From: a virus
Taxonomy: Duplodnaviria > Heunggongvirae > Uroviricota > Caudoviricetes
Length of the DNA stretch: 16,297 bases
Virus record (IMG/VR): IMGVR_UViG_3300029033_000070
Location: 1 to 16,297 of that record
Reading direction: 5' to 3' (one strand)
Positions 263-16,297 of this stretch are shown one piece after another; the stretch's first letter is position 1; each line of letters starts with the position of its first letter. Made by a program: the position numbers and the translations under genes. Below the pieces are notes generated by a model. That model searched no databases. It saw only the letters and a program-made list of their open reading frames with translations, and had not been told where the DNA came from.

Positions 263-355
263 GAAATTTTTTTAACAAATGCCCAGTCTGACAGGCAACT
301 GTCAACTTACTGAATTGTGAGCAACATAGCATTTAACGGGGAACCTGTTTTCTGC

Positions 356-1270: not shown

Positions 1271-1327
1271 AAGTTGTGTGGCGTAGTAACCACTCTTAAC
1301 ATACTGACATACTTTTTGCGGACCGCG

Positions 1328-1720: not shown

Positions 1721-1737
1721 CAACTTTCTCCACAAAA

Positions 1738-2727
1738 TCAGGACAGCACACCAATCGCCAGCGCGCGATCGATAAAACGAAATATCAGCTCCAGCTGGGA
1801 GCCATACTTCTCTTCAAATGCCACGGTATCCGCATGCAGCTCGTCGTGATGCTTTCTGCACAAAGGCAACACAAAGAGGTCATGCGCTTTTGTACCCATT
1901 CCGCCCTGACCGTGACCTATCAGGTGGTGGGGATCATCAGCAGGTTTTCCACAACATGCGCACGGCTGCGTCTTAACCCAGCGCGTGTACTTTTCATTAA
2001 CCCAGCGGCGACGTTTTGGGCGTAACATAAAAGACTCCGGCGACTCCGGATCCACTTTCAGCGCCAGCACCTTTTTCGCTTTATCCCGGATAATACTGGT
2101 GGCGGGAACCGAAGGCACAAGGTCACTTTCCCGGGTGACAGACGGCACAACCGTCTTCGGTAATCTCAGTACCTTACGGGCTGCACTTTCCGGTAAGGCA
2201 TCCGCCAGGTCATTACGAACCAGCCACCAGCACAGTTCCGGCATTGTCACAACGTGACTGTCATCAAAACCAAGATCACGGCGCACAACAGACAACACCC
2301 AGCGGGCACAGTTATCCGTTGCCATTGATTCCAGCCGTTCCGTGAACTGGTCACGGAGGAGATTGTCACAGTGCCAGCACAGACGGATTGCGCCTGGCGC
2401 GTGCCGCATTGTGGTCATGTTCTCGCTGTGCCAGTCGGAATGAGGCCACTGACAGCCCTTTTCACGAAGTAACCAGCTCTCAAGGCATTCCACGCCACCA
2501 GCACGACGGATCACCGCCTCATTGCGGAACACGGCCCGAACGGCAGGATCATCCGCCAGCGGTTGTGATGCCGCCGGAACGGCACCACTGGCGAAAGATG
2601 AATAACGCTCCGGCTCAGGCTCCAGCAGGACACGCCCCTGCATAAACAGGGGCATCAGCTCTGAACCTGGCCTGAACAATACGATCCCCATACGCGGGGC
2701 AATTTCAGGGGTCAGTAGTGCTCTCAA
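1738..2727 (-). CDS. DUF968-family prophage protein (YdfU-like) with C-terminal Cys/His HNH-like motif
   Basis: 329-aa ORF; C-terminal segment PCACCGKPADDPHHLIGHGQGGMGTKAHDLFVLPLCRKHHDELH resembles the zinc-binding/HNH-like region of DUF968 proteins. Start is a TTG at 2727 with GAGG 6 nt upstream (an ATG lies 13 codons in). Family call from memory. Confidence 0.55.
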   Translation of the reverse strand: MRALLTPEIAPRMGIVLFRPGSELMPLFMQGRVLLEPEPERYSSFASGAVPAASQPLADDPAVRAVFRNEAVIRRAGGVECLESWLLREKGCQWPHSDWHSENMTTMRHAPGAIRLCWHCDNLLRDQFTERLESMATDNCARWVLSVVRRDLGFDDSHVVTMPELCWWLVRNDLADALPESAARKVLRLPKTVVPSVTRESDLVPSVPATSIIRDKAKKVLALKVDPESPESFMLRPKRRRWVNEKYTRWVKTQPCACCGKPADDPHHLIGHGQGGMGTKAHDLFVLPLCRKHHDELHADTVAFEEKYGSQLELIFRFIDRALAIGVLS

Positions 2728-2736
2728 CGTAGAACC

Positions 2737-3252
2737 TCACAGCACAATCTGTTTCAGTTTCTGTACCGCTTTCCCCATATCCGCCATAGCATCAACAAAC
2801 TCATCAAATTTACGACTTGCCATTCCATACGCCTGGAGGATTTCCAGTTTCAGAGGATCCAGTTGCTTTTTAATTTCCGCACGATCATTAAATTTCTTCT
2901 CTGCTTCTTCCGCAGCCCTGATCAGCTCCTCAGCATGCCTGCGTAATTCATCCGGAGTAACGGTCTTTTTAATCACAACGGGTTCCTCTGTTTTTACTGG
3001 TATTTCACTATTTACTGCCTGATGTCCAAATTTAGGATGATGTAACGTTGTAGTTCTTCCATCATTCGCAACGACCAGAAGTCCACTGTCGCGGATAATG
3101 CCAATGAGTATCTCCTTATCCCTTTTATTCAGTAGACTGTACGCCTGCACTTTCTGTGATATCTGGGTCAGTGTTGCGCCTTCCGGCATTCGTTCAACAA
3201 AACGTTTAACCCTGGATAAAACTGGCTGCAGATGGGGTGGTGTAATTCTCAT
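2737..3252 (-). CDS. Hypothetical prophage protein (171 aa)
   Basis: ATG at 3252 with GGGAGG 8 nt upstream; charged, helix-rich C-terminal half; no family recognised. Confidence 0.5.
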   Translation of the reverse strand: MRITPPHLQPVLSRVKRFVERMPEGATLTQISQKVQAYSLLNKRDKEILIGIIRDSGLLVVANDGRTTTLHHPKFGHQAVNSEIPVKTEEPVVIKKTVTPDELRRHAEELIRAAEEAEKKFNDRAEIKKQLDPLKLEILQAYGMASRKFDEFVDAMADMGKAVQKLKQIVL

Positions 3253-3267
3253 GCTCCACGCCTCCCA

Positions 3268-4083
3268 TCAGTGAACGGTATCGAGCAGCTTTAACAGCTC
3301 AGGGAATCGGGATTCGAAGAAATGCGGCTGCGTCTCGCGCGGATTTGCAGGACTGGTGATGTTCTTGCCGAACATGCAGCCTTTCGCTGTCAGCGACCAG
3401 AATTTTTTGATGTTGTTAATCGCGGTACGGCTGTATCGTTCGCGTTGTTCAACGATCCCCAGCTTCGCCATCTGGTGATATGCCTGATTAGCCGTCAGGC
3501 GGATACCATACTGCTTCAGCAGTGCACTCAGCGACAGCGTAGGGCGGCTTGAACCATCTGGCGCATCAGCAGGTGCATCAATGGCATAGATCGGCATAAG
3601 TTCAGGAAGACCAGCTACCTTTGATAATTTCTGGTATGCACCAAGTTTCGAGGAGTTTGACAGATTTAGAGTCTTTGCTGCTGATTCAAGCAGAATGACC
3701 CCGGATTTAATTTTGTCGGATGTGGTTTCTTCTGGTGATGAATTATGAAGCGCATCAAAAGTACGTATCACTTTTAAGCTGAATGCCGGGCTGATCCACA
3801 TTGCATATGCATAGACCAGCTCTTTACAGACATACGTCCCACCATTGCGCCCCTGAATGGTGATGACAGGAATACTACGGGAATCTCCCGTAGTTTCTTC
3901 TTCCAATAATTCCACAAGAGCCTTCGTTTCAGGACGACGCATAAACTCGTGAACTTCCAGCGAACGGGAGGAGCGATTCTCACCAGCGGCAAGAAGAGCA
4001 GCTTTCTGAAGGTCGTTAAGACAGTAGTTAGATTCGAAGTACTGGCGCACAGAAACGCCATCAATTACAAGCAACTGATTCAT
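3268..4083 (-). CDS. KilA-N domain protein (antirepressor-like)
   Basis: Motif QGRNGGTYVCKELVYAYAMWISPAF is typical of KilA-N domains. The ORF-track start at 4095 is a GTG; the ATG at 4083 is preceded by GGAG 7 nt upstream, so 4083 is preferred (271 aa). Confidence 0.7.
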   Translation of the reverse strand: MNQLLVIDGVSVRQYFESNYCLNDLQKAALLAAGENRSSRSLEVHEFMRRPETKALVELLEEETTGDSRSIPVITIQGRNGGTYVCKELVYAYAMWISPAFSLKVIRTFDALHNSSPEETTSDKIKSGVILLESAAKTLNLSNSSKLGAYQKLSKVAGLPELMPIYAIDAPADAPDGSSRPTLSLSALLKQYGIRLTANQAYHQMAKLGIVEQRERYSRTAINNIKKFWSLTAKGCMFGKNITSPANPRETQPHFFESRFPELLKLLDTVH

Positions 4084-4139
4084 TGGTTTCTCCACAAATT
4101 TTTATCCACGAGCGGGACTGCACTCCCTTTTCGTTGATG

Positions 4140-4245
4140 CAGGATGAACTTACTGCGATTTTTAATAGTTATCAAGGATACACTGTTCATAAATACAGTA
4201 TCTTTAACGAGGTAATACCCAAATTTAGGGTGTTGCTCAATTCCG
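4140..4245 (-). promoter_or_regulatory. Promoter region with a consensus LexA (SOS) box upstream of the KilA-N gene
   Basis: + 4181-4200 cactgttcataaatacagta = CTGT-N8-ACAG with AT-rich spacer (tactgtatttatgaacagtg on the minus strand). Flanked on the minus strand by two sigma70-like promoters: TTGATA-17-TAAGTT (-35 at 4170-4175, -10 at 4147-4152) and TTGAGC-17-TATTAC (-35 at 4235-4240, -10 at 4212-4217). Confidence 0.5.
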
Positions 4246-4641
4246 TTACCGAGTTGCTAATTTGCAACTCGCTTTTTCGTACTTACTGATAGTGATCTCG
4301 ACCTTCCCTTCCGGGATAACCGGTCCCCACTCCACCAGCATTCTTTTCACCTGGCTGTCGTCTTCCCACACACCCGCGTGGGTCAGGGCGTCAAACAGCG
4401 CCTTGTTATAGTTGTCCAGATCGCGGATCCGGTTATCCGGAGGAAACAACACGATCTCCACTGAAGCAGGTGCCGACGTTGGTTTCGGCAGACGACGTAA
4501 CTGCTCAACTATTGCTGCACACGCCGCGCTCTGGAATTTTCGCCCCGCCGCGCTTATCAGGCTCTTACCAGCAAACGCCCCTTTGTTAGGGTGTCGCCAG
4601 TACGTGTTCACGCTGGGCGGAAAAGGCAGTATTAGCTTCAT
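4246..4641 (-). CDS. rusA: Holliday junction resolvase RusA
   Basis: 131-aa translation carries the RusA-family DLDN/DD signature (DNRIRDLDNYNKALFDALTHAGVWEDDSQV). ATGA overlap with the upstream gene. Confidence 0.85.
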   Translation of the reverse strand: MKLILPFPPSVNTYWRHPNKGAFAGKSLISAAGRKFQSAACAAIVEQLRRLPKPTSAPASVEIVLFPPDNRIRDLDNYNKALFDALTHAGVWEDDSQVKRMLVEWGPVIPEGKVEITISKYEKASCKLATR

Positions 4642-4964
4642 ACTTTCAGGCCCCTCTCATGTAACCAGTGGGTTGCACGCAGCCTTGCGTTTTCCTCACC
4701 GGCAAGCAGTGCGCGGATAATCCCGACCGCCTCGCTGTCGTCGTCCTTCATCGCAGTATGAAGCGTTATCCCCCGGGCCACGCCACGCTTTATCGTGATG
4801 ACGCCTTTTTTCTCCAGTGCGCGAAGATGCTCCACCGCTGCATTCACCGAACGGTATCCCAGCATGGTTGCCACCTCCTGATTGGTTGGCGGGAAGCCAC
4901 GTTCTTTCTGATAAGAAATCAGCATATCCAGCACCTGCTGCTGGCATTGAGTTAATGTCGTCAT
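4638..4964 (-). CDS. LexA DNA-binding-domain-only protein (no S24 peptidase domain)
   Basis: MTTLTQCQQQVLDMLISYQKERGFPPTNQEVATMLGYRSVNAAVEHLRALEKKGVITIKRGVARGITL aligns along its length with the LexA N-terminal winged helix (LTxRQQEVxDxIxxxxxxxGxPPTxxEIAxxLGFRSPNAAEEHLKALxRKGVIEI...RGIRL). Only ~35 residues follow and they lack the Ser/Lys protease motifs. ATGA overlaps at both ends. Confidence 0.8.
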   Translation of the reverse strand: MTTLTQCQQQVLDMLISYQKERGFPPTNQEVATMLGYRSVNAAVEHLRALEKKGVITIKRGVARGITLHTAMKDDDSEAVGIIRALLAGEENARLRATHWLHERGLKV

Positions 4965-5614
4965 GCCGCCATCTCCCTGACCAGTTTTTCCGCCTGCTGG
5001 CGAGCCTGCGCCAGAAATGCCTCACCACATGCCTCAAGTTCATCGCGCCCGATGTAGCTGATTGCCGCTCCCTTCCAGGTCTTGTCGAAAACAGCAATAG
5101 CACCAGCGAAGAAAGCACCTGTTGGCACCTGCTTTTCGTCTTTCGGGATAAACCAGGCTGGCAGTTCAAAACCAATACGCCCGCGAATAAAAGCAATATG
5201 ATCTGCATCTTCCGGCCACCACACTTCGCTGGTGGCCGCTTTGATCAGGAAAACATAGCGCCCGCCTTTATCACGCATGGCACTGGCATGCTTCATGATG
5301 TAACGCATGCCGGTGATGTATTGTCCCTCATGCTGACTGGCGCGGCTGTACGGGGGATTACCAAAGGCAGCACCTTTAAGCTCCGCAAGACGTTCTGACC
5401 AGTCATGTGCCAGCGCGTTGTCTTCCGCCGTGTAATACGCGGCACATTTGGCGTTATCACCGTCAGTAAACAGATCCAGAACAAACGGGCCAAACAGGGT
5501 GTTAATTCCCCAGAAAATGTTGTCCGGCGTGCGCCACTGATCGCCCACTTCCTTCAGTTCATGGGCTGGTTTGTTCCGTAGTTCCACCAGCGCCTGGCAA
5601 TATTTATTACTCAT
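4961..5614 (-). CDS. Phage DNA N6-adenine methyltransferase (Dam-type, orphan)
   Basis: Motifs WRTPDNIFWGINTLFGPFVLDLF and FGNPPYS (NPPY catalytic motif). ORF track starts at a GTG (5647); the ATG at 5614 overlaps the upstream stop (TAATG) and has a G-rich SD, so 5614 is preferred. Confidence 0.75.
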   Translation of the reverse strand: MSNKYCQALVELRNKPAHELKEVGDQWRTPDNIFWGINTLFGPFVLDLFTDGDNAKCAAYYTAEDNALAHDWSERLAELKGAAFGNPPYSRASQHEGQYITGMRYIMKHASAMRDKGGRYVFLIKAATSEVWWPEDADHIAFIRGRIGFELPAWFIPKDEKQVPTGAFFAGAIAVFDKTWKGAAISYIGRDELEACGEAFLAQARQQAEKLVREMAA

Positions 5615-6108
5615 TAAGCCCCCACGTAATTCCCTGACAGATACCACTCATCACCCGCTACAGCGCGCTTTCTGCTTTTCCGTAAGCACCGCTCACGACG
5701 CGCCAGAAAATTGTTTCGTTCTGGCTGGGAGTGGCTTTCACGGAATGCCGCCATCCACACGGTTGCAGCACGACGGTATAAGCCCCTGGACTCCAGTTCT
5801 TCCGCCTGGCGGGTCAGGCACAAAATCACCCGGGGATCGTTAGTGCCGACATAGAAATTGCGCACAGGTATGGTTTCAAGAACAGGTTGCAGTTTCTCCT
5901 CCTGCGATATCTCAGCCTGGTGTGGGAAATGTCTGCGTGTTTTCCCTTCACAACAGTGAGCCACACGGCCACTCTGACGTAACTTGCTTGCTGACTGCAG
6001 AACGCACTGTCGTGAGTAACCAGCAAAAGCATCCGCAATGTCACCTGAAGTACACCCCGGATGGGCTTCAATGAATTTCTGTACATCGTTCATCAGACTC
6101 ATGATCAC
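5614..6108 (-). CDS. PerC-like putative transcriptional regulator (YfdN-like)
   Basis: Segment LESRGLYRRAATVWMAAF resembles the PerC-family core motif; the 164-aa length matches my recollection of YfdN. Start is GTG 6108 or ATG 6102, both abutting the O-like gene stop. Confidence 0.45.
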   Translation of the reverse strand: MIMSLMNDVQKFIEAHPGCTSGDIADAFAGYSRQCVLQSASKLRQSGRVAHCCEGKTRRHFPHQAEISQEEKLQPVLETIPVRNFYVGTNDPRVILCLTRQAEELESRGLYRRAATVWMAAFRESHSQPERNNFLARRERCLRKSRKRAVAGDEWYLSGNYVGA

Positions 6109-7088
6109 CCCCTGAATCCTGTCGGGATCTGGCTGTAGTCCACGTTGTCGTAACTGGCTTTGAAGTACGGGTCCTCGCGTCTGGCTGCAGATACCGCAGG
6201 AACTTCCCAGGATTCTTCGAAATGACGATCCGGACCAAAGAACGTGACAGCCTGTTTCACAAATTGTGTGCCGCTATTGCCCATCGCAGATACCCAGCCC
6301 GCGTAGCGTTTCACACCTTCCAGCATGGTTTCGGGGTTTACCCCCTCGTTCAAACGGGCTTTCCAGGCTTTGAAGGCTGCTGATTTTGAATTGCCACCAG
6401 CACGTTTGGGATATTCCTGCCAGGCCTGTTCAAATTCCGGTGAATATTCCTGTCGGGCAGAACGCGCTGGCGCAGACGCGTCAGCGGATGCATCAATAGT
6501 GTTTTTAGTCTCCGTTGTAATCTCTGTAGTAATCTCTGTATTTGTATCAACATTCGGCGTATCCCCTGTTCCGTTATGACGTCGGGGGGTGTTCCGTTTT
6601 AACGTAATAGCTGTATCGCTGATTGCATTATTGCTGTTACTTTCTGGCGAAACAGAAGAAGGTGTGGTGATGGCCGCAATTGCCTGTGGGTTGATCCCGA
6701 CAAACAAAATATTGCTGCATTTCACCCCATCGAGCATTTCCACCGTGCGTAAATCCAGAGTAATAAACCCTGCATCGCGCAGACGCTTCAGCGCATCTGC
6801 GGTTTCCCTTTTCCCGAAACCAAACTGCTCAGCAAACGCCTGGTAGCTTCTTTGCAGTTTGTCGCCCTGAAAACGCTTGCGATATCCCAGCAACGCTCCG
6901 GTGTGCTCATCCCTGACCTCTGTCGGGCGGTACCAGTAAACGATCTCTGAAAGCAGAGCGATAGCCGTCGCATCCGGACGCCCACTGGGTAGTCGAATAT
7001 ATTTCCACCAGGTCGCAGGTGTAACATTGCCGGAAATATTAATTTGACCAATAGCCATAACTTCCGGTGTGGGGGCGTAACGGCTCAT
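6105..7088 (-). CDS. Replication initiator, lambda O-like / replisome organizer
   Basis: N-terminal domain consistent with phage replisome-organizer N-terminus; C-terminal EFEQAWQEYPKRAGGNSKSAAFKAWKARL resembles O/DnaT-type C-termini. Carries an internal 12-bp tandem repeat. ATGA overlap with the upstream ORF. Confidence 0.6.
   Translation of the reverse strand: MSRYAPTPEVMAIGQINISGNVTPATWWKYIRLPSGRPDATAIALLSEIVYWYRPTEVRDEHTGALLGYRKRFQGDKLQRSYQAFAEQFGFGKRETADALKRLRDAGFITLDLRTVEMLDGVKCSNILFVGINPQAIAAITTPSSVSPESNSNNAISDTAITLKRNTPRRHNGTGDTPNVDTNTEITTEITTETKNTIDASADASAPARSARQEYSPEFEQAWQEYPKRAGGNSKSAAFKAWKARLNEGVNPETMLEGVKRYAGWVSAMGNSGTQFVKQAVTFFGPDRHFEESWEVPAVSAARREDPYFKASYDNVDYSQIPTGFRG
6517..6546. 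repeat. Tandem 12-bp direct repeat inside the O-like gene (candidate iterons / ori)
   Basis: gtaatctctgta at 6517-6528 and 6529-6540, then partial tttgta; encodes TEITTEIT in the inter-domain linker. By analogy, lambda ori iterons lie inside O. Confidence 0.3.
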
Positions 7089-7384
7089 ACAACCTCCTTC
7101 CGCAGCATGAGAATTGTGTAGCCACGCGCAGGTTGTAGTCTGGCTTTTGCATCAATAGTAAGCGTTGCAATTTTTCGGATATGAAGATAACCAGCTCTTT
7201 CCAGTGCCAGGGTTTCCCTGAATATCGCTTGCTTAGAACAACAGCAGAAATCAGCAAGCACCTGATGATCAATAACTCTCTCGCCTTCACCGTCTGAAGA
7301 ACCCGACATCAAAACACGCAACATAATCAGGCGCTGAATCGGGTTATCGAAAGCACATCCGCACACAAACTGAAAACAGTTCAC
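7085..7384 (-). CDS. Hypothetical small protein (99 aa; possible HTH)
   Basis: Stop overlaps the O-like ATG (ATGA), which supports translation. Start is GTG 7384 or an internal ATG. No family recognised. Confidence 0.4.
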   Translation of the reverse strand: MNCFQFVCGCAFDNPIQRLIMLRVLMSGSSDGEGERVIDHQVLADFCCCSKQAIFRETLALERAGYLHIRKIATLTIDAKARLQPARGYTILMLRKEVV

Positions 7385-7605
7385 GCCACACCTCCCAGAC
7401 GCTTAAACATTTTTCCGGAGCAAAAGGCTATAAGCGGCATACTGACGCGGTAATTACGGCCCAGCGGTTCACAAATCACCTTCTGACATTCACGGTCAAC
7501 CAGGCTAACACGTAGAACATGCCCTGCAGGCGTGGTGTACCACTGACCAGGACGAGGACAACGGAAAGTCTGATTGGTAAACCGTTTGAAAATATTCCGG
7601 ATCAT
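7381..7605 (-). CDS. Hypothetical small protein (74 aa)
   Basis: ATG at 7605 overlaps the stop of the Rha-domain ORF (ATGA). No family recognised. Confidence 0.4.
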   Translation of the reverse strand: MIRNIFKRFTNQTFRCPRPGQWYTTPAGHVLRVSLVDRECQKVICEPLGRNYRVSMPLIAFCSGKMFKRLGGVA

Positions 7606-8753
7606 TTGCGCCCCCTTACCTCTGAAGGGTTCAGCGACAAATTTATGAGACTGGCCAGTAGCGCCGCGTCGTTGATGCGGTCATACAGACTTACAGCCAG
7701 CGGGGATTCGGCTTTTGCCAACATGGGATAAAGCTGCTGCAGCCAGACCTTGTGGATTACCGACAGGTGGGAGTAAAGCACGCTGGCGTTATCTGCGGCA
7801 TCGCTCAGCGTGGATGGCTTTGAAAGCAGTTTTTCCATCTGGTTAAAGGCATTGATGTATGCCTCTTTGAACCGGGCAGCACGTTTACCCGTGAAACCCA
7901 TAGCAAGAAACGCAAAACCGTCGCGGGTGATTTGGTAACAAGGGAGTTTGCGGCCTGATGCGTCGGTGTATTCACTTAACACAAAATTGTGTTCAGTAAA
8001 TTCAGCGGAACATTCGAGGTTTCTAATTCTATCTAAAACCCGCTCATGCCGTTTAGTAAAGTAATTAGCTACTGCAAGAGATGTGGTGACAACGCGACCA
8101 TTGATAATCGTGATTTCAGGGTGAGATTGGGTTGGGAGAGTAGTCATGGTGACAGCCCCTATGTTGAATTCAATGAACTCACCACCAAGGCTTTCCACGA
8201 CCATATAGGTGGTGAGACGTACAGGGGTGGAAATACCGGTCAACATAGAACCCGGCCCAACCGAAGTTGGCCCTGCACGCCCCACCATAATTTGGGCGTA
8301 ACGATGCTCATGACACGAAAAAACCGCATGAGCGCGGTTGTGCTCTATATTGAATTTCGGGTTTCCACGCCCGGCACCCGCTTTATAAGGTGCCGGAACA
8401 GTGTAACGTCCCGGAATTGCAGAATCAATATGCTGGTGGTCCTTCACACTCAACAAAATCACGCCTGAATTTCCACAAAGGACTAAAGCACTCATGCGGG
8501 TAGTCTTTGCGAAGATAGATAACGCGCTGTGTTTCTGGCTCCCAACGAATAACATGGACATAAAGCCCTCTTCCGTCACGAAACCAGCGGTTAAGTTCCT
8601 GCACAACTCGCCCCCCACAGTCAGGTAAAGTTCTCTGTGGTTACTTACAGCCAGGTGATTTGGTAATCTGCATTCATGCCGTAACAACAGGTGTTCAGCG
8701 ACGCTGACCACCAGCTGTTGCGACAAACGGTTATTTGCCGTTAAACTATTCAT
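7602..8753 (-). CDS. Rha-family phage regulatory protein with ~200-aa N-terminal extension of unknown function
   Basis: Rha signature ITIINGRVVTTSLAVANYFTKRHERVLDRIRNL...YQITRDGFAFLAMGFTGKRAARFKEAYINAFNQME at aa ~210-300. ATG 8753 overlaps the upstream stop (ATGA), supporting the long form; an internal ATG at 8147 with AGGGG upstream would give a conventional ~181-aa Rha protein. Confidence 0.55.
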   Translation of the reverse strand: MNSLTANNRLSQQLVVSVAEHLLLRHECRLPNHLAVSNHRELYLTVGGELCRNLTAGFVTEEGFMSMLFVGSQKHSALSIFAKTTRMSALVLCGNSGVILLSVKDHQHIDSAIPGRYTVPAPYKAGAGRGNPKFNIEHNRAHAVFSCHEHRYAQIMVGRAGPTSVGPGSMLTGISTPVRLTTYMVVESLGGEFIEFNIGAVTMTTLPTQSHPEITIINGRVVTTSLAVANYFTKRHERVLDRIRNLECSAEFTEHNFVLSEYTDASGRKLPCYQITRDGFAFLAMGFTGKRAARFKEAYINAFNQMEKLLSKPSTLSDAADNASVLYSHLSVIHKVWLQQLYPMLAKAESPLAVSLYDRINDAALLASLINLSLNPSEVRGRK

Positions 8754-9307
8754 GCGTTAGTTTCTCCACAACCAGAAGCAATCGACGCCACGACGCCCGG
8801 AGCTGCACACTCGCGGGCGTTACTATTTTCTGGAGCGCAGAAGATTTTGTAGACCAGTGCTGCATGCTCCTGGAGCTTCGAAATTGAAAGATACAGTTCG
8901 TCGTTAATTGCTGTCTTCTCATGCGGTTCCACTACACCGTCTTCGATTGCTGAACGAATCTGTCTGGAATAACCGCCGATCTGTTCAATGACTTCCAGCA
9001 GGCGCTGGTTTATATCGGCGTTCTCTACTGCCTCAATTTCAGGAAGCGATACGAACACCCCACCAGCAGACTGTGCGACAGCATCCGCAATGTAGTGAGT
9101 GCCAGCCGCACGCTGTAAAACCATTGCCCATCCCAGCGGGAAAATCTGATCGCCATCTGCACGAAGGCGGTTGAATAAAGCGTTCTCTGTTACATCCAGC
9201 CAGTCAGCAGCTTCAGCGTAACCCCCAGGCAATGCCGCGATAGTTTTTCTGACAGCTTTCACGTACCACTCAGGTTGTTTTTCCACTTTCCAGTGATGCT
9301 TACCCAC
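8750..9307 (-). CDS. Hypothetical early-operon protein (185 aa), second gene after cro
   Basis: GTG start at 9307 with AGGAGG 6 nt upstream; overlaps the cro 3' end by 8 nt. Positionally analogous to cII/YdaT-type genes, but sequence not assigned. Confidence 0.55.
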   Translation of the reverse strand: MGKHHWKVEKQPEWYVKAVRKTIAALPGGYAEAADWLDVTENALFNRLRADGDQIFPLGWAMVLQRAAGTHYIADAVAQSAGGVFVSLPEIEAVENADINQRLLEVIEQIGGYSRQIRSAIEDGVVEPHEKTAINDELYLSISKLQEHAALVYKIFCAPENSNARECAAPGVVASIASGCGETNA

Positions 9308-9560
9308 GGCTTACCTCCTGTTCCTGTGGTTTAAACCCATTCTGGTTTTGGCTAGATTGAAAACGTGCCGGATAAAGAATCTGCATTTCGCTGATTTCAC
9401 CCTTAAAAAAATTGGCCAGACGTTCTGCAAGATCGATAGATGGAATTTGTTCCAGTCTTTCAATACGACTCAGCGTCGCTGGATTGACCTGAACGCCCGC
9501 AGCAACATGCTGCAAAGTAAATCCGTGCGCCTTACGCACATTCCGTAATGGTGATTGCAT
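9300..9560 (-). CDS. cro: Cro-like HTH (XRE-family) regulator
   Basis: 86 aa; HTH KAHGFTLQHVAAGVQVNPATLSRIERLEQIPSIDLAERLANFF. Divergent from the CI-type repressor; GGAGG SD before the ATG. Confidence 0.8.
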   Translation of the reverse strand: MQSPLRNVRKAHGFTLQHVAAGVQVNPATLSRIERLEQIPSIDLAERLANFFKGEISEMQILYPARFQSSQNQNGFKPQEQEVSRG

Positions 9561-9657
9561 ATAACCTCCACATATTGCGTGATGAGCATATTATTTCACG
9601 CAAATATTTTGCGCAAGTTGATTTGCTTAACGCGCAATAAAGAAATGTAATAAACGC
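9561..9657. promoter_or_regulatory. Immunity-region operator/promoter block (OR-like, PR and PRM)
   Basis: Repeated CGCAA/TTGCGC half-sites: ttgcgtga...tcacgcaa inverted repeat (9574-9604), cgcaaatattttgcg near-palindrome, acgcgcaa. Minus-strand TTGCGC-17-TAATAT (PR-like). Plus-strand TTGCTT-17-TGTAAT ends 6 nt before the cI ATG with no SD, implying a leaderless cI mRNA. Confidence 0.6.
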
Positions 9658-10350
9658 ATGAACATAGGAAATCGAGTCAGACAACTTCGCCAGGCGAAGA
9701 ACATGAAAATCGCCGATCTCGCTGAAGCAATAGGAGTGGATGCGGCGAATATCTCGCGCCTCGAAACAGGTAAGCAGAAACAATTCACTGAACAAGCCCT
9801 GAGTAATATTGCCAGGAGCTTAGGTGTTGATATTGCTGATCTCTTTACCTCAGACCTCAAAAGTAATACTGTATGTAAAAACAGTATTAGTGAGGATGTT
9901 GCGCAGGTGAAGGATGTATTCCGTATTGAAATGCTGGATGTCAGTGCCAGTGCGGGAAATGGCCTTATCCAGGGCGGTGATGTCATTGATGTGATTCATG
10001 CCATTGAATACAGAACTGATAATGCTGTATCGATGTTTGGTGGACGACCAGCAAATCACATTAAAGTTATCAACGTTCGTGGGGACAGTATGTGTCCAAC
10101 CATTGAGCCAGGAGATCTCATCTTCGTTGATATCAGTATCAATCAGTTTGATGGGGATGGTATCTATGTGTTTGGTTTTGATGATAAAATTTATGTCAAA
10201 CGACTGCAAATGATACCTGACAAACTACTGGTAATTTCTGATAACCAGATTTACCGTGAATGGGGAATTACCAGCGAAAATGAACACCGGTTTATGGTCT
10301 TTGGAAAGGTCTTAATCAGCCAGTCACAAACCCTTAAGCGACACAATTAA
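9658..10350 (+). CDS. cI: CI-type prophage repressor, HTH + S24 (LexA-like) self-cleaving peptidase domain
   Basis: N-terminal HTH (IGNRVRQLRQAKNMKIADLAEAIGVDAANISRLETGK); C-terminal GDSMCPTIEPGDLIFVD (catalytic Ser) and VKRL (Lys); an Ala-Gly pair in the linker (SASAGNG). Confidence 0.9.
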   Translation: MNIGNRVRQLRQAKNMKIADLAEAIGVDAANISRLETGKQKQFTEQALSNIARSLGVDIADLFTSDLKSNTVCKNSISEDVAQVKDVFRIEMLDVSASAGNGLIQGGDVIDVIHAIEYRTDNAVSMFGGRPANHIKVINVRGDSMCPTIEPGDLIFVDISINQFDGDGIYVFGFDDKIYVKRLQMIPDKLLVISDNQIYREWGITSENEHRFMVFGKVLISQSQTLKRHN

Positions 10351-10370
10351 CCCTTACCTCCTCATCAATT

Positions 10371-10395
10371 AGCCACCCGAAGGTGGCTTTTCATT
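10371..10395 (+). terminator. Intrinsic terminator after cI
   Basis: agccacc-cgaa-ggtggct hairpin followed by TTTTCATT. Confidence 0.6.
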
Positions 10396-10399
10396 ACTC

Positions 10400-10460
10400 A
10401 TCAAATTGCATATCTCGCAACAAAAATACTTGCATAATGCGCAACTTCATTTTATCTTTC
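10400..10460 (+). promoter_or_regulatory. Candidate PL/OL-like region
   Basis: TTGCAT (10430-10435)-17-TATCTT and an operator-like ttgcataatgcgcaa element sharing the GCGCAA half-site with the OR block. Promoter hexamers are weak; assignment tentative. Confidence 0.3.
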
Positions 10461-10890
10461 TTTCCAGACCAACAAACAAGGTACTAACAAAATTTGGTTG
10501 TAACACGGCGTATGGCACATGCGTCGTTAGCGGTCTGGGGACGTTAAAGGAGACAATCCACTCCTTGCTCGGGCAAACAAACCAGGTAGCCGGAATGTGC
10601 AAGTCAATGATGATGCTGATAAGACGCCTAACCAGCGTGGCGATTCGGTTTGACGCCTGGGAAGAGACCAGGGTGCAACGATGAGGGCATTTATGGAACC
10701 GCGACAAAGTGTGGTGCCGTAACTGGCTAAGTGCTCTCAGTGTTGTGGTGAAGGCGCAGGCTGATGCGCGAAAGACATTGCAGCTATTGCGGAAAAGAGC
10801 TGTTCGGCGGGGCAATTAAACGCCCGTGAGAGTCTGAAATAACCGCAAGCCGGAGATCAGCACCGGTCACCACAACAGCCACTGCTTTGG

Positions 10891-10939
10891 CGGTACCAGT
10901 TTGTACACTTGCTTCCGGCTGGTACCGCTCTTTTTACAA
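10891..10939 (+). terminator. Terminator-like hairpin overlapping a boxA-like motif in the PL leader
   Basis: cggtaccag-19 nt loop-ctggtaccg (10891-10927) followed by ctcTTTTT; the sequence gctctttttacaa (10927-10939) resembles boxA (rrn GCTCTTTAACAA, lambda CGCTCTTA). Confidence 0.4.
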
Positions 10940-11024
10940 AACAGAGAAGAGCATCACCGGACGACGGGCTCATAACCCAATCCATCCGGGCGGCTGCCAC
11001 CGCAGGTGTTCTTCTCTGTTTTGT
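10936..11024 (+). promoter_or_regulatory. Long perfect inverted repeat (15-bp arms, 59-nt loop) in the leader upstream of the first PL-operon gene
   Basis: acaaaacagagaaga (10936-10950) and tcttctctgttttgt (11010-11024) are exact reverse complements, extendable via cacc/ggtg; ends ~50 nt before the YfdP-like ATG. Confidence 0.4.
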
Positions 11025-11072
11025 GGGGAAACCAACCGACCTTGCAGGGTCGATATGATGAGGAGCAGCAAA

Positions 11073-11435
11073 ATGGCTAGCGAACGTAGTACTGATGTGC
11101 AGGCATTTATCGGGGAGCTGGACGGCGGCGTATTTGAAACCAAAATCGGAGCTGTTCTCAGTGAAGTCGCTTCCGGTGTGATGAACACGAAAACCAAAGG
11201 TAAGGTCTCGCTCAACCTGGAAATCGAACCGTTTGATGAGAACCGTGTGAAAATCAAACACAAACTCTCATATGTTCGCCCGACTAACCGCGGGAAAATT
11301 TCCGAAGAAGACACCACCGAAACGCCGATGTATGTCAATCGCGGTGGTCGCCTGACTATTCTGCAGGAAGACCAGGGACAATTACTGACTCTTGCCGGTG
11401 AACCTGACGGAAAACTCCGCGCAGCAGGTCATTAA
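11073..11435 (+). CDS. YfdP-like hypothetical protein (120 aa)
   Basis: ATG 11073 with GAGGAG 8 nt upstream; the track ORF 10887.. is an in-frame upstream extension without SD. The 120-aa size and position before the YfdQ/YfdR-like genes match my recollection of CPS-53 yfdP. Confidence 0.55.
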   Translation: MASERSTDVQAFIGELDGGVFETKIGAVLSEVASGVMNTKTKGKVSLNLEIEPFDENRVKIKHKLSYVRPTNRGKISEEDTTETPMYVNRGGRLTILQEDQGQLLTLAGEPDGKLRAAGH

Positions 11436-11500
11436 TATCGTTCTTAATTAACCGATTATTTATCTCATCACTGAATATCTTTATATAGTGAGGACTTATT

Positions 11501-12325
11501 ATGTCTCAGAACTTAGACGCAACCGCAATTAATCAAATCCATTCCCTTATTTCTGCTCAGGGTGTTAATGAAATTATCAGTAAGATTGGTGCCGATGCTG
11601 TGGCATTGCCTGAGAATTTCCGCATTCATGATCTGGAAAAATTTAATTTAAATCGCTTCCGTTTCCGTGGTGCGCTTTCCACTGCCAGCATCGATGACTT
11701 TACCCGTTATTCTAAAGATCTTGCAGATGAAGGCACCCGCTGCTTTATCGATGCCGATAATATGCGAGCAGTCAGTGTGCTTAACCTGGGTACTATTGAT
11801 GAACCAGGTCACGCAGATAACACCGCCACTCTCAAACTGAAAAAGACAGCACCGTTCTCTGCCCTGTTGTCTGTTAACGGCGAGCGTAACTCCCAGAAGT
11901 CACTGGCAGAATGGATTGAAGACTGGTCCGACTACCTTGTGGGCTTTGATGCTAATGGTGACGCTATTCAGGCAACAAAAGCGGCTGCGGCGGTCCGTAA
12001 AATCACGATTGAAGCAAACCAGACCGCTGATTTTGAAGATAATGACTTCAGCGGCAAACGCTCCCTGATGGAGTCTGTCGAAGCGAAGACCAAAGATATT
12101 ATGCCAGTGGCATTTGAATTTAAATGCGTTCCGTTTGAAGGTCTGAAAGAACGTCCATTTAAATTACGCCTCAGCATTATCACTGGCGATCGTCCTGTAC
12201 TGGTTCTGCGCATTATTCAGCTGGAAGCAGTGCAGGAAGAAATGGCTAACGAATTTCGTGATCTGCTTGTTGAGAAATTCAAAGACAGCAAAGTAGAAAC
12301 CTTTATTGGTACTTTCACCGCCTGA
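11501..12325 (+). CDS. yfdQ: YfdQ-like protein (DUF2303 family), 274 aa
   Basis: ATG with AGGA SD; 274-aa size and gene order (before the HD-domain YfdR-like gene) match CPS-53 yfdQ as I recall it. Function unknown. Confidence 0.6.
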
Positions 12326-12453
12326 TTTCATTACTGCAAATGCTCCTGCGGGGGCATTTATGGAAACGTAATTAACTCAATAATCGCCGGATGGTGCGGG
12401 ATTCCTTTTACCCGAATTCAGCGCGGTGCAGCGCATATAAAGTGGAGAACGAA

Positions 12454-12990
12454 ATGTCATTTATTAAAACTTTTTCCGGGAAGCATTTTTATTATGACAA
12501 GATAAATAAAGACGACATCGTGATTAACGATATCGCGGTTTCCCTTTCAAATATCTGTCGCTTTGCAGGACATCTTTCACACTTCTACAGTGTCGCCCAG
12601 CATGCGGTGCTTTGCAGCCAGCTGGTGCCGCAGGAATTTGCTTTTGAAGCGTTAATGCATGATGCAACAGAAGCGTATTGCCAGGACATCCCCGCACCAC
12701 TGAAACGACTTCTTCCTGACTATAAACGGATGGAAGAAAAAATAGACGCCGTAATCCGTGAGAAATACGGGTTACCTCCTGTTATGAGCACGCCAGTGAA
12801 ATATGCCGATCTCATCATGCTGGCAACCGAACGCCGCGATCTCGGGCTTGATGATGGCTCTTTCTGGCCAGTACTGGAAGGTATCCCGGCAACAGAAATG
12901 TTCAAAGTTATTCCACTGGCTCCGAGCCATGCCTACGGGATGTTTATGGAGCGCTTTAACGAGTTATCGGAGTTACGCACATGCGCATGA
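12454..12990 (+). CDS. yfdR: HD-domain phosphohydrolase, YfdR/YfbR-like 5'-deoxynucleotidase family
   Basis: H...HD metal-binding motifs (HLSHFYSVAQHAVL; ALMHDATEAY); start ATG 12454 with GGAGAA SD gives 178 aa. The track ORF start at 12391 is an unsupported extension. Confidence 0.7.
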   Translation: MSFIKTFSGKHFYYDKINKDDIVINDIAVSLSNICRFAGHLSHFYSVAQHAVLCSQLVPQEFAFEALMHDATEAYCQDIPAPLKRLLPDYKRMEEKIDAVIREKYGLPPVMSTPVKYADLIMLATERRDLGLDDGSFWPVLEGIPATEMFKVIPLAPSHAYGMFMERFNELSELRTCA

Positions 12991-13592
12991 ATGTTTTCGA
13001 AATGGAAGGGTTTCTTCGCGGGAAATGTGTACCACGAGATCTGAAAGTGAATGAAACAAATGCTGAATATCTGGTGCGTAAATTTGCTGAAGCGGAGGCC
13101 AAGATTTTGGCTCTGTCCGAAGACCAACAGAAAGCGATTGAGTCAATTAAGCAGGCTGATGCAGCTGTTAAGTTGGCACACGAGAAGTTTTCGGCGCTGG
13201 CGGCGGAGAATGCGGGGCTGAAACACGCAATGGCCGTAACTCTTGAGCATGTGTCGGTCACGGATGCAGGGCAGGCTGGTGTTGCTGCAATGATTATCAA
13301 CGATGCCCTGCACCACAGCGAAACTCCAGCCACCGATGCTTTCCTGGCTGAAATTCGTGCGGAAGCACGCAACGAGGGGATTAACTATACCGCAAGCCGT
13401 CTTGCTGCTGCTTTCAATCACGGATTTATCAATAAGTCTTTACGTGAAGTTTTCGACGTTACACGCATGATTCTGTCAGCGAAAGAAGAGTTGGCTAATG
13501 AACCACACCCGATTGATGGCCTGTCCGGTGAATATGCGGAGAAATCCCTAGAAGAATGGGCGGAACAGATTCGCAAAGGAGGCAACCAGTGA
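12981..13592 (+). CDS. Hypothetical Ala/Glu-rich (probably coiled-coil) protein, ~201-203 aa
   Basis: Start overlaps the YfdR-like stop (ATG 12981 with GGAG upstream, or ATG 12987 in an ATGA overlap). No family recognised. Confidence 0.5.
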   Translation: MRMNVFEMEGFLRGKCVPRDLKVNETNAEYLVRKFAEAEAKILALSEDQQKAIESIKQADAAVKLAHEKFSALAAENAGLKHAMAVTLEHVSVTDAGQAGVAAMIINDALHHSETPATDAFLAEIRAEARNEGINYTASRLAAAFNHGFINKSLREVFDVTRMILSAKEELANEPHPIDGLSGEYAEKSLEEWAEQIRKGGNQ

Positions 13593-13813
13593 GCGGAAAA
13601 AGAATGACTAACAGAGAGCTTGTTGATGCCGCGATTAAGCTTGCTGGTGATTTTTATTCAATGATGGGGTACGCGCATCGCCCTGGATTCAAATATTGGG
13701 AATCACCGCATCCGCAAGAGCAACTGGTATTTCAAATGGCCTGCCGTGCTTTTGAGGTTATTCGCGGTTCTGATGTGATGGACGCCGTTGCCGACTTGGA
13801 GGATGAAGAGTGA
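13589..13813 (+). CDS. Hypothetical small protein (74 aa)
   Basis: GTG start in a GTGA overlap with the upstream stop, AAGGAGG 6 nt upstream. The track ORF start at 13556 lacks an SD. Confidence 0.45.
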   Translation: MSGKRMTNRELVDAAIKLAGDFYSMMGYAHRPGFKYWESPHPQEQLVFQMACRAFEVIRGSDVMDAVADLEDEE

Positions 13814-14160
13814 CCCAAATTAACTATCAGGCACTGCGTGAGGCAGCAGTAGCAATTGAAACAGTGGCAACGCCTCAAAAATTGCAGGCGTTTCGGATGA
13901 AGGTCACACCGTCGGTGGTACTGGCGCTGCTGGATGAAATTAAGCGCCTGGAGGACACAAATATTGATGCTATGTGCCGAATTGCAGAACTGGAAGCGAG
14001 GGAAGTTCAATTACCGACTCGCTACGACCTTCGATATGGACACCCGATAAATGCAGATGAGCGACAAGTCATGATACCTAAAGAAAATGGCAGTTGGCTT
14101 TACCTGATTGACCTAGAACACGCATTACGCGTCGCTGACATTCGCATCAAAGGAGAGTGA
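13810..14160 (+). CDS. Hypothetical protein (116 aa), possibly ead/Ea22-like
   Basis: GTGA overlap start with GGAGG upstream; predicted coiled coil (VLALLDEIKRLEDTNIDAMCRIAELEAREV). The Ea22-like assignment is weak and from memory. Confidence 0.45.
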   Translation: MTQINYQALREAAVAIETVATPQKLQAFRMKVTPSVVLALLDEIKRLEDTNIDAMCRIAELEAREVQLPTRYDLRYGHPINADERQVMIPKENGSWLYLIDLEHALRVADIRIKGE

Positions 14161-14161
14161 T

Positions 14162-14677
14162 ATGGCGTTAACACACCACGAACTCTGTCAGATTGCGTAC
14201 AAGTTCCTTAAGCGCAACGGGTTCAAGGTTTGCTTTCATGACCGCTTTGTTGCTGTAACCAGTACCGGAGAACAGCCAGATGCTATGGGATTCAGAAATT
14301 CAGCATCATGCCTGATAGAGGCGAAGTGTTCTCGTGCTGACTTGTTGGCAGATAGAAAAAAGCGTTTCCGTAAAAATCCCTCACTTGGCATGGGCGACTG
14401 GCGATTCTTTATTAGTGAGCCGGAAATTATTTCAGTTGAGGATTTACCTCCCGGCTGGGGATTACTTCACGTTGTTAACGGAAGAGTACGGAAAGTACAT
14501 GGATGGCCCAGGGGTAATTGCTGTTGGGGTAATCCTGACGATAAGCCATTTACTGGGAATAAGCAGGTTGAATGCGATTACATGTTATCTGCATTAAGGC
14601 GCATGGAGTTGAGAGGGCACCTTAATGAAATATATGACGGTGTGATTGTTAATAAGAAAGAAGGAAACGCGGCATGA
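14162..14677 (+). CDS. PD-(D/E)xK nuclease-superfamily protein (Hjc/VRR-NUC-like motif spacing)
   Basis: E7 ... QPD(41) ... IEAK(53-55): EQPDAMGFRNSASCLIEAKCS has the canonical PD-x(n)-ExK layout. AAGGAG SD; start 1 nt after the upstream stop. Confidence 0.5.
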   Translation: MALTHHELCQIAYKFLKRNGFKVCFHDRFVAVTSTGEQPDAMGFRNSASCLIEAKCSRADLLADRKKRFRKNPSLGMGDWRFFISEPEIISVEDLPPGWGLLHVVNGRVRKVHGWPRGNCCWGNPDDKPFTGNKQVECDYMLSALRRMELRGHLNEIYDGVIVNKKEGNAA

Positions 14678-15591
14678 TCACTATTACCAAAGGGCGACTG
14701 CTGACAATCAAGCAGTGGCGCGAAACATACGGACCGGGTAGCAACGTTGTACTGCCAGCAGAAGAAGCGGAAGAACTGGCACGAATTGCTCTGGTATCGC
14801 TGGAAGCAGAGCCGGTGGCAAAGATTATAGCTCATTACCCATTAGGAGTTGACGTAGGCAAACAAAAGTTCGTACAGGCCATTGGAGAGCTTCCTGACTT
14901 TGGCGGATATCTATTTGCCGCCCCGCCAGCGCCGGTAGTGCCGGAAGAAGCAACTCCGGAAAACGTAGAAATGCTCTCTGGCTATGTTTCCACGTACAAA
15001 TTAACCGATAGCGAGCGCGATATTGCTGCCGAAATATGGAACGCCTGCCGCACCGCCATGCTTCAGTCCGGAAACTTTCGGGAAAGCAAGAATTCGTCAA
15101 CCAATAATTTTCGGGAAATCCCGGAAGCGTCAACCAGCTCTCCGGTAACTCCGGCTCTTCTGCCTGGTGGTTTCACCATTGAGGAGGCGAAGGAATTACA
15201 TGAAGACCTGGTACGCAGCCACATAAGCAAGGCCTTAAGTGGCGAAAAGATGAAAAAGAAAGATCGCGATGCTGATTTGCGCTGGATTCATGGCGTTATA
15301 GTTCAGGCAGCGTGGTTTGTAAAAGCATCACTGGAGCAGAATGCACTATCGGGCAACTCTCCGGTAACTCCGGATGGTTGGATAAGCTGTAGTGAGCGAA
15401 TTCCGGACGATAAACAGTATGTTTGGTGTTGGGGTAAGTCTTACGGCTGGACTGAGTGCGATACCTTCGAAGGGTATTACGATTGGTCGAGAAACAAATG
15501 GTGGGCAGTTACTGACGATGGGGAAGAACCGGCATCGAAAGTAACCCACTGGATGCCGCTACCAGAACCGCCGCAGGAGGTGCGCCAATGA
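14674..15591 (+). CDS. Prophage protein with C-terminal DUF551 domain
   Basis: C-terminal WGKSYGWTECDTFEGYYDWSRNKWW...VTHWMPLPEPP is the typical DUF551 ending; ATGA overlap start. Confidence 0.6.
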   Translation: MITITKGRLLTIKQWRETYGPGSNVVLPAEEAEELARIALVSLEAEPVAKIIAHYPLGVDVGKQKFVQAIGELPDFGGYLFAAPPAPVVPEEATPENVEMLSGYVSTYKLTDSERDIAAEIWNACRTAMLQSGNFRESKNSSTNNFREIPEASTSSPVTPALLPGGFTIEEAKELHEDLVRSHISKALSGEKMKKKDRDADLRWIHGVIVQAAWFVKASLEQNALSGNSPVTPDGWISCSERIPDDKQYVWCWGKSYGWTECDTFEGYYDWSRNKWWAVTDDGEEPASKVTHWMPLPEPPQEVRQ

Positions 15592-15671
15592 TCTGGCCTG
15601 AAGCATTTGCAATTACAGGCGTTGCTATGGCTATCGCTTTTTTAGTATATGTTATTTGTCGGTGTGGGTAA
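15588..15671 (+). CDS. Small hydrophobic peptide (27 aa, single predicted TM helix)
   Basis: ATG in an ATGA overlap with the DUF551 stop; AGGAGG 7 nt upstream; MIWPEAFAITGVAMAIAFLVYVICRCG. Confidence 0.35.
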   Translation: MIWPEAFAITGVAMAIAFLVYVICRCG

Positions 15672-15706
15672 AAGCGTTCGCCGGGATTAACACCAAAGGA
15701 GGGAAT

Positions 15707-15811
15707 GTGTCGGATGATATCTCACTGGCAATGGAAGGTGCGCTGGCTGTTATTGCTGTTGTGGGTGTTTACTGCCTGGTTGTGTTTTTGATGGATCGAC
15801 TAGGGAACTGA
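15707..15811 (+). CDS. Small hydrophobic peptide (~34 aa); frame uncertain
   Basis: AAGGAGGG at 15696-15703; GTG 15707 frame gives VSDDISLAMEGALAVIAVVGVYCLVVFLMDRLGN. An alternative frame from ATG 15714 gives a 25-aa Trp/Leu-rich peptide. Confidence 0.25.
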   Translation: MSDDISLAMEGALAVIAVVGVYCLVVFLMDRLGN

Positions 15812-15819
15812 ATTCATTA

Positions 15820-15841
15820 CGATATGGGAATTCCCATATCG
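15820..15841. repeat. Perfect 22-bp palindrome centred on GAATTC
   Basis: cgatatgggaa/ttcccatatcg; no U-tract on either side, so not a typical terminator. Confidence 0.6.
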
Positions 15842-16056
15842 GGTAAAAACGGTTTGCGGTAAAGCGAGAGTTAAGTAGAATTGCTGCGGGTGCTTGAGGC
15901 TGTCTGCCTCGGGCATGCCACCGTAAGGCAGACAGAGAAAAGCCCCAGTTAACATTATGCGTCTTGCAGGACGCTTAACATTAATCTGAGGCCAATTTCA
16001 TGCTAGTCACATGTAGGTTAGCCTCTTACACGCCGAAAGGCAAGGAGAAGCAGGCT

Positions 16057-16212
16057 ATGAAGCAGCAAAAGGCGATGTTAGTCGCCCTGATCGTCATCTG
16101 TATTACCGTCATTGTGACGGCACTGGTAACGAGGAAAGACCTCTGCGAGGTACGAATCCGAACCGGCCAGACGGAGGTCACTGTCTTCACAGCTTACGAA
16201 CCTGAGGAGTAA
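16057..16212 (+). CDS. hokD: Hok-family type I toxin (HokD/RelF-like)
   Basis: MKQQKAMLVALIVICITVIVTALVTRKDLCEVRIRTGQTEVTVFTAYEPEE is near-identical to HokD/RelF as I recall it. AAGGAG 9 nt upstream of ATG 16057; the track ORF from 16000 is an in-frame upstream extension. A 3' hairpin (cccgc-ttcg-gcggg) is cut by the window end. Confidence 0.8.
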   Translation: MKQQKAMLVALIVICITVIVTALVTRKDLCEVRIRTGQTEVTVFTAYEPEE

Positions 16213-16297
16213 GAGACCAGGCGGGGGAGAAATCCCTCGCCACCTCTGATGAGTCAGGCATCCTCAACGCACCCGCACTTAACCCGCTTCGGCGGGG

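Follow-up and report, generated by a model that had tools for sequence, protein, structure and literature searches.

The window analysed here is the whole of a 16,297-nucleotide stretch of viral DNA (Caudoviricetes; IMG/VR record IMGVR_UViG_3300029033_000070, positions 1 to 16,297), and the gene of interest lies on its plus strand at positions 14162 to 14677. Profile comparisons identify the predicted product, a protein of 171 amino acids, as an unrecognised and divergent end-to-end homologue of the MmcB-like (DUF1052) proteins, of which its family would be a sister group or subfamily within the PD-(D/E)xK superfamily. We further propose, at a probability of roughly 0.55, that the protein is a structure- or damage-specific DNA endonuclease that aids replication, repair or recombination of the replicon during its establishment or induction.

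Relationship to MmcB-like proteins

The MmcB-like family (PF06319/DUF1052/COG5321) includes MmcB of Caulobacter crescentus and SPO1766 of Ruegeria (Silicibacter) pomeroyi, the protein of structure 3DNX. Earlier work predicted nuclease activity for DUF1052 and a kinship with the junction resolvases of archaea (PMC1189080, PMC3424549), and Caulobacter MmcB is described as a PD-(D/E)XK endonuclease under SOS control that is required for resistance to mitomycin C and cisplatin, possibly together with translesion polymerases (PMC9578287).

A profile of the window family (hmmsearch) recovers 3dnx_A at E 1.1e-4, with D40, E53 and K55 of the window protein aligned to the D, E and K of that structure; a 97-residue fragment of 3dnx in turn matches PF06319 at 2.2e-32. 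Alignment of the family to 29 MmcB-family proteins with hhalign gave a probability of 97.8% (E 1.3e-12) in local mode and of 98.4% (E 4.6e-14) in global mode, the latter over 140 columns that include the C-terminal helix. The predicted structure of the window protein also matches 3DNX, the solved structure of the MmcB-like family, and five of its Foldseek matches in BFVD (E 1e-7 to 1.2e-3) are proteins from phages or viral metagenomes that bear the name MmcB-like or MmcB-family. A phmmer search of the window protein against PDB sequences returned noise only, and the gathering threshold of PF06319 is not reached. Conservation within the family was assessed throughout on 59 representatives that are 34–61% identical to the window protein; seven of these match PF06319 weakly (best E 2.9e-4), and the Pfam matches among the 59, all at E 1e-4 or weaker, comprise ten to Hjc, seven to MmcB-like and one to UPF0102.

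Among phage protein families, the window protein is a full-length member of phrog_9263 (E 1e-120) and phrog_631 (E 1.5e-93), both of unknown function; relatives from plasmids, lytic phages and Acidobacteria fall in phrog_631. Neither PHROG carries a functional annotation, and the link to MmcB-like or PD-(D/E)xK proteins is unrecorded there. Weak matches of the window protein and its relatives extend to phrog_2776 and phrog_5429 ("DNA repair protein"), both of which SPO1766 itself also hits. In GenBank the relative in Vibrio phage pVa-6 had already been given the label "spo1766 structure" by one submitter.

The positions that define the gene and its motifs are as follows.

14162..14677, plus strand: coding sequence of the MmcB-like PD-(D/E)xK protein, 171 amino acids, stop codon included, ATG start (open reading frame list and sequence)
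14240..14242, plus strand: codon of D27, end of strand beta-1; acidic in 58 of 59 representatives, aligned with E29 of MmcB/SPO1766
14270..14281, plus strand: codons of E37-Q-P-D40, the "PD" half of the motif, start of beta-2; D40 in 59, E37 in 58 and P39 in 57 of 59; D40 corresponds to D39 of SPO1766
14318..14326, plus strand: codons of E53-A-K55, the "(D/E)xK" half, end of beta-3; E53 and K55 each in 58 of 59; aligned with E53-C-K55 of SPO1766
14330..14353, plus strand: codons of S57-R58-A-D60-L-L-A-D64, the SRxDFxxD helix motif common to the MmcB-like family; D60 in 59 and D64 in 58 of 59
14570..14602, plus strand: C-terminal helix segment from E137 to R146-R147; E137 in 59, R146 in 57 and R147 in 54 of 59; "SALRR" aligned with "AARRL" of MmcB

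The MmcB-like family shares a D...E-x-K followed by S-R-x-D-F-x-x-D, and its signature (D, E[VIC]K, SRxDFxxD) is represented in the window protein by D40, E53-A-K55 and S57-R-A-D60-L-L-A-D64. Also held in common are an arginine (R81/R76), L-P and G-L motifs and a C-terminal A-x-R-R helix. LexA-type control may be a further likeness: mmcB is SOS-regulated (PMC9578287), and the window gene lies 3' of a cI-like repressor gene with an S24 peptidase domain. The two groups differ in that the window family reads G-E-x-P-D, with E37 and P39 invariant apart from one and two representatives, where MmcB has G-L-R-V-D. Unlike PF06319 proper, the window family has a conserved H5 in helix 1, a longer loop at 115–130 and a seven-residue basic insertion, KKxFRxxP, between the SRxDFxxD helix and beta-4. 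Its members are found mainly in phages and plasmids (of Gammaproteobacteria and others) and on Acidobacteria chromosomes, whereas PF06319 proper is mostly alphaproteobacterial (PMC3424549).

Comparison with other nuclease families supports MmcB-like proteins, rather than Hjc or VRR-NUC, as the closest relatives. Archaeal Hjc (PF01870; 1HH1, 1GEF, 2EO0, 1OB8) has the same superfamily core and the same D/ExK spacing, and the window protein has neither a Pfam Hjc match above threshold nor a close structural match to Hjc. The structural match to VRR-NUC nucleases (such as 4QBN and VRR-NUC proteins of phages) is confined to the 84-residue core; the window protein has no match to Pfam VRR_NUC (PF08774), and the window-family motifs SRxDF, GMGxxR, WGLL and ALRR are absent from VRR-NUC.

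Motif conservation and predicted fold

The first-pass annotation of this DNA, made from the sequence alone, had called the gene a nuclease-like frame from a QPD and an IEAK motif. Both are present: residues 37–57 read EQPDAMGFRNSASCLIEAKCS, as quoted there. By itself the bare PD-(D/E)xK motif is weak evidence and is not significant. Shuffling the window protein yields D-x(8-20)-[DE]-x-K in 52% of cases and the stricter PD...[DE]xK in 4%, and of the 38 open frames in the window that reach 100 amino acids, 4 carry the PD version. It is conservation and fold that carry the case.

D40, D60, G78, R81 and E137 are invariant in all 59 representatives. D/E27, E37, E53, K55, D64, K67, R70, W99 and L101 are each kept in 58, P39 and R146 in 57, and H5 and G100 in 56, and the family consensus around ExK is IECKxSRSDFLxD. 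The motif residues named in the first-pass annotation are thus conserved in homologues (59, 58 and 58 of 59 for D40, E53 and K55), although the catalytic aspartate, numbered D41 there, is D40. The glutamate that it pointed to near the N-terminus exists as E7 and is semi-conserved, with 28 Glu and 13 Asp among the 59 (41 acidic residues in all); H5 (56 of 59), D/E27 and E37 are the conserved positions in the same part of the protein. One representative, P0153, has lost the ExK motif. A Cas4/RecB-like iron-sulphur nuclease was considered and rejected: C9 is Val in 43 of 59 representatives, and cysteine is not conserved at any position of the family alignment.

An AlphaFold2 model of the window protein, built with 37 homologues, has a predicted local distance difference test score (pLDDT) of 86 and a predicted template modelling score (pTM) of 0.81. 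Its elements are alpha1 (5–18), beta1 (23–26), beta2 (41–45), beta3 (48–54), alpha2 (58–65) and beta4 (80–85); D40 stands just before or at the start of beta2, and E53-x-K55 ends beta3. The predicted layout is that of a canonical PD-(D/E)xK protein with an alpha-beta-beta-beta-alpha-beta core and a mixed sheet, which places the protein in the superfamily and bears out the restriction-endonuclease-like fold that had been anticipated. Foldseek searches of the PDB gave weak matches in the same direction, Hjc structures among them.

Between the window gene and homologues that are 49–77% identical in amino acid sequence, nonsynonymous divergence (dN) is 0.2–0.5 and synonymous divergence (dS) is saturated; in both comparisons where dN/dS could be computed it is below 0.1. 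The 171-codon frame is a real gene under strong purifying selection.

Distribution of the family

Identical or near-identical DNA is present in 137 phage records, mostly of Shiga toxin (Stx)-converting phages, with Lys8385Vzw and PhiR5_1 showing 100% DNA identity to the window gene, and the gene occurs in 928 of 5,426 complete E. coli genomes. In the phage and E. coli records with near-identical DNA the annotation is always "hypothetical protein". A search clustered at 90% identity found 308 relatives across Enterobacterales. Beyond these, the family profile, run against 1.84 billion representatives clustered at 50% identity, puts the family at no fewer than 3,230 clusters at E<=1e-3, of which 2,431 reach E<=1e-10. 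By tblastn the family appears in 643 phage records, many of them Ackermannviridae and Vibrio phages. It is also on 865 plasmid records, 411 of which are conjugative.

Labels elsewhere are erratic. In E. coli RM8385 (NZ_CP028112.1; locus positions 15001–15179) RefSeq/PGAP calls the 100%-identical DNA a "frameshifted" pseudogene of 179 nucleotides, though the 516-nucleotide frame is intact; other family members are labelled "structural protein" (pVa-6) or "adenylosuccinate synthase" (Shigella phage ChubbyThor; Pseudomonas and Rahnella plasmids). All three labels are probably propagated mis-annotations.

Genomic context in the window and in temperate phages

The window gene, an early gene of a Shiga-toxin-type lambdoid prophage, is closely packed between two neighbours on the same strand.

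13810..14160, plus strand: Ead/Ea22-like protein, upstream neighbour (Pfam PF13935, E 9.5e-8)
14151..14155, plus strand: Shine-Dalgarno sequence AGGAG, 6 nucleotides before the ATG (read from the sequence)
14674..14677, plus strand: ATGA overlap of the DUF551 start codon with the stop codon of the 171-amino-acid gene (open reading frame list and sequence)
14674..15591, plus strand: DUF551-containing protein, downstream neighbour (Pfam PF04448, E 3.6e-16)

The stop codon of the Ea22-like frame is at 14158–14160. Given this close upstream stop, the Shine-Dalgarno site and the ATGA overlap downstream, co-translation with the neighbours is plausible, and the three genes may form one plus-strand operon in which all are translationally coupled; the earlier suggestion of co-translation with DUF551 finds its support in the overlap at 14674–14677. 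Further out, the order is cI-like repressor, YfdP-like, YfdQ/DUF2303, YfdR-like HD 5'-deoxynucleotidase, two unknown frames, Ea22-like, the 171-amino-acid gene, DUF551 and sok/hok. The repressor gene (9658–10350) encodes helix-turn-helix and Peptidase_S24 domains, and the operon with the 171-amino-acid gene lies 3' of it. By gene order and orientation only, this would be a lambdoid early-left (PL) operon. The first-pass annotation had placed the gene in a PL module, with which order and orientation agree; a repeat search of the window for the operators that define PL gave nothing convincing, and the PL promoter and operators were not located.

The related Stx1a prophage of E. coli RM8385 has the gene order of the window, with a 3'-5' exonuclease gene next in line. 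The neighbours form a mosaic in the 168 phage loci sampled: a DUF551 relative lies no more than 4 kb away in 43 of them, Ea22 in 18, and hok and a C5-methyltransferase in 5 each. A type II restriction endonuclease of a restriction-modification pair was among the candidates rejected, there being no adjacent methyltransferase; the neighbours are Ea22-like and DUF551.

Several other elements were recorded in the window. Its hok/sok locus is at 15888–16212 (Pfam HOK_GEF 2.7e-22; Rfam sok 117.6 bits). At the left end Rfam places the AsxR (anti-stx2) small RNA at 26–78 (plus strand) and two STnc100 small RNA copies at 82–291 and 569–774 (both minus strand), a set that fits the late-regulatory region of an Stx-type phage. 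A C4 antisense RNA (8205–8292, minus strand) and an isrK Hfq-binding RNA (8317–8393, minus strand) lie in the 5' part of a 383-codon frame at 7602–8753 (minus strand), a related coding sequence of which RefSeq names "Rha family regulatory protein"; the arrangement resembles a P1/P7-type antirepressor control element in a lambdoid immunity region. The YfdQ (DUF2303) and YfdR-like HD-domain 5'-deoxynucleotidase genes of the same early operon (11501–12990) represent the yfdPQR module of CPS-53/KpLE1.

Genomic context in lytic phages, plasmids and chromosomes

In Vibrio phage KF5 the homologue stands between an SNF2 helicase gene, which abuts it, and a primase gene, which it overlaps by 4 nucleotides. 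The homologue is likewise directly 5' of a homologous phrog_47 primase in Vibrio phage D494 and in the Escherichia phage Kuttervirus FEC14, with an overlap in FEC14. The phrog_47 "DNA primase" genes in these three arrangements (located at 4863–6607 of the KF5 locus, 4980–6661 of that of FEC14 and 3980–5739 of that of D494) have no Pfam match. In Pantoea phage AH01 a metallophosphatase gene is immediately 5' of the homologue, and in Vibrio phage K249 exonuclease and AAA_23 ATPase genes are upstream.

On IncF plasmids the homologue, here of 172 amino acids and 66% identical, belongs to the leading region, in the order ssb, parB-like, psiB, psiA, homologue, hok and, further on, traM. Its start overlaps the psiA stop, for example in K. 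pneumoniae pM1023-4Ar.3 (locus positions 6977–7495) and in a second locus, L170, at the same positions (6977–7495). Because psiA is followed directly by sok/hok in canonical IncFII plasmids (PMC10912980), the homologue is an insertion between psiA and hok that only some IncF plasmids carry (247 plasmid records at 60–80% identity). A homologue-hok module of DNA common to the window and these plasmids was considered and rejected: only the open reading frame aligns (67%), and the hok regions have no DNA similarity. Other conjugative plasmids carry the homologue beside ssb, rdgC and orphan methyltransferases. In Burkholderia multivorans plasmid p1_2010Ycf503 (locus positions 1–6639) it is part of an operon of small unknown genes; genes for imuA, a Y-family polymerase and an SOS-response-associated peptidase are found about 3 kb away in divergent orientation. 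That setting brings to mind the connection proposed for MmcB with translesion synthesis by ImuABC.

Many genomes of Terriglobia (Acidobacteriota) hold the homologue (match at about 5001–5440 of the loci) in a conserved chromosomal locus. In 48 loci a gene for a CHAD and HD (Ppx-GppA_III) protein precedes it on the same strand, and recR (in 40 loci), ybaB and dnaX are convergent and downstream. The Terriglobia branch thus looks like a vertically inherited cellular gene, parallel to mmcB in Alphaproteobacteria.

Proposed function and alternatives

The recurrent neighbours – primase and helicase, SSB, PsiB/PsiA, recombination nucleases, recR-dnaX and an SOS-type repressor – all concern DNA that is newly active or newly entered. 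For this reason we favor a nuclease of DNA establishment or induction, and the context as a whole favors a DNA-processing role in replicon establishment or replication. The catalytic activity, substrate and biological role that we infer are these. The protein is probably a small, divalent-metal-dependent endonuclease of PD-(D/E)xK fold, with D/E27, E37, D40, E53 and K55 as proposed active site; nucleic acid would probably be held by the basic helix that follows ExK (SRxDFxxD..KKxFR; K66, K67, R70) and by the C-terminal "ALRR" helix. Since the gene lies in the early-left operon, downstream of the gene for a LexA-like cI repressor, it would be switched on immediately upon infection or SOS induction. 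The enzyme would then cut or process branched, stalled-fork, single-strand/double-strand-junction or damaged DNA and so enable the newly active replicon to carry out replication, recombination or repair of its genome. Beside the primase of lytic phages and in the first-entering leading region of conjugative plasmids, relatives would serve the same role.

A number of observations weigh against this proposal. Primase adjacency, tested as a general feature, holds only for KF5-like and Ackermannviridae-type phages, and even the Ackermannviridae member Vibrio phage VAP7 lacks it, having a DprA-like gene downstream. Its place in temperate phages is a mosaic accessory region populated by small uncharacterised genes (DUF551, Ea22), a setting that is also typical of anti-defence or host-takeover genes. 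The window protein has no match in Pfam or NCBIfam at E<=10. E37 and H5, conserved in the window family, are not shared with MmcB, so the active site may differ from that of MmcB. Finally, the literature on MmcB, DUF1052, SPO1766, PF06319 and COG5321 yielded no functional study of the window family.

The most serious competitor, which we regard as possible and clearly less probable than the proposal above, is an anti-defence or establishment factor: a nuclease, or a DNA binder derived from one, that is made first on entry and neutralizes a host barrier (restriction, RecBCD or a DNA-based immune effector) rather than repairing or replicating its own DNA. The siting of the family in the early-left accessory region and in leading regions by psiB/psiA, ssb and orphan methyltransferases would suit such a factor, as would its sporadic presence in E. 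coli (928 of 5,426 genomes) and a C5-methyltransferase within 4 kb in 5 of the 168 sampled phage loci. Leading regions enter the recipient first and are enriched in protective and anti-defence genes, a third of their most prevalent families being uncharacterised (PMC11541004); the supplements of that paper gave no match for the terms searched. Strictly conserved catalytic residues suit an enzyme, not a mimic or blocker, and both the chromosomal branch in Acidobacteria and the linkage to the primase of lytic phages suit DNA metabolism better. A search of PADLOC-DB with the window protein found no match at E<=1, in a library that holds defence rather than anti-defence genes. It also counts against this explanation that, to our knowledge, no anti-defence protein of the family has been described.

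The remaining explanations fare worse. An archaeal Hjc-type Holliday-junction resolvase, resolving recombination or branched replication intermediates before packaging, has some appeal: DUF1052 was first linked to such enzymes (PMC1189080), the ten Pfam Hjc matches among the 59 reach E 1.3e-4, Sulfolobus Hjc can be aligned to the family profile over the D...ExK region, and Hjc structures figure among the fold matches. The context nevertheless argues against a dedicated resolvase, because a RusA-family resolvase gene is already present in the window at about 4246–4641 (95% DNA identity to an annotated RefSeq region), and plasmid leading regions and primase-side sites are atypical for resolvase genes; we consider this explanation unlikely. 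Less likely again is an agent of host takeover or exclusion, be it a toxin, a degrader of host DNA or a solitary enzyme resembling type II restriction endonucleases. Small size, a restriction-endonuclease fold, methyltransferases near a few loci, and hok/sok (next to the IncF homologue, and separated from the window gene by a single gene) are what could be expected of one. The window and most loci, however, have no adjacent methyltransferase or antitoxin-like partner, the apparently vertical chromosomal branch in Acidobacteria has no obvious immunity partner, and MmcB, the closest characterised relative, protects cells (PMC9578287); with a repressor-controlled early operon that should be silent in lysogens, the context argues against a toxin or defence gene expressed in the lysogen. 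PD-(D/E)xK folds have in some cases been co-opted as binders that lack activity, and P0153 has no ExK, but an inactive protein that acts solely as DNA-binding or scaffold subunit is very improbable when the acidic and lysine residues of the active site are all kept in 58–59 of 59 diverse representatives.

The endonuclease that we propose may be framed more boldly, although in this form we hold it doubtful. PHROGs 9263 and 631 with their plasmid and chromosomal relatives could be a dedicated "establishment nuclease" of phages and conjugative plasmids, co-expressed with primase, SSB and PsiB/PsiA within minutes of DNA entry or SOS induction, which processes lesions, cross-links or secondary-structure roadblocks on the incoming or induced template to allow complementary-strand synthesis or replication to begin. 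Stx prophages are induced by DNA-damaging agents such as mitomycin C; if the idea holds, they carry their own MmcB-type repair step for replicating a damaged genome.

Significance

The family is large and widespread, in phages, on conjugative plasmids and on some chromosomes, and yet it is unnamed and has no Pfam or NCBIfam model. Nothing in the analysis suggests a new mechanism, and if the protein proves to be an ordinary accessory nuclease then the gain is mainly better annotation, for a gene carried by 928 of 5,426 complete E. coli genomes and found in most of the matching Stx-converting phage records. The MmcB-like identity supplies a testable active site in D40, E53 and K55, and it ties a family of SOS-type DNA-repair nucleases to phage induction and plasmid establishment. 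It also offers a candidate for those uncharacterised genes of leading regions and early operons that may affect the production of Shiga-toxin phages or the spread of resistance plasmids.

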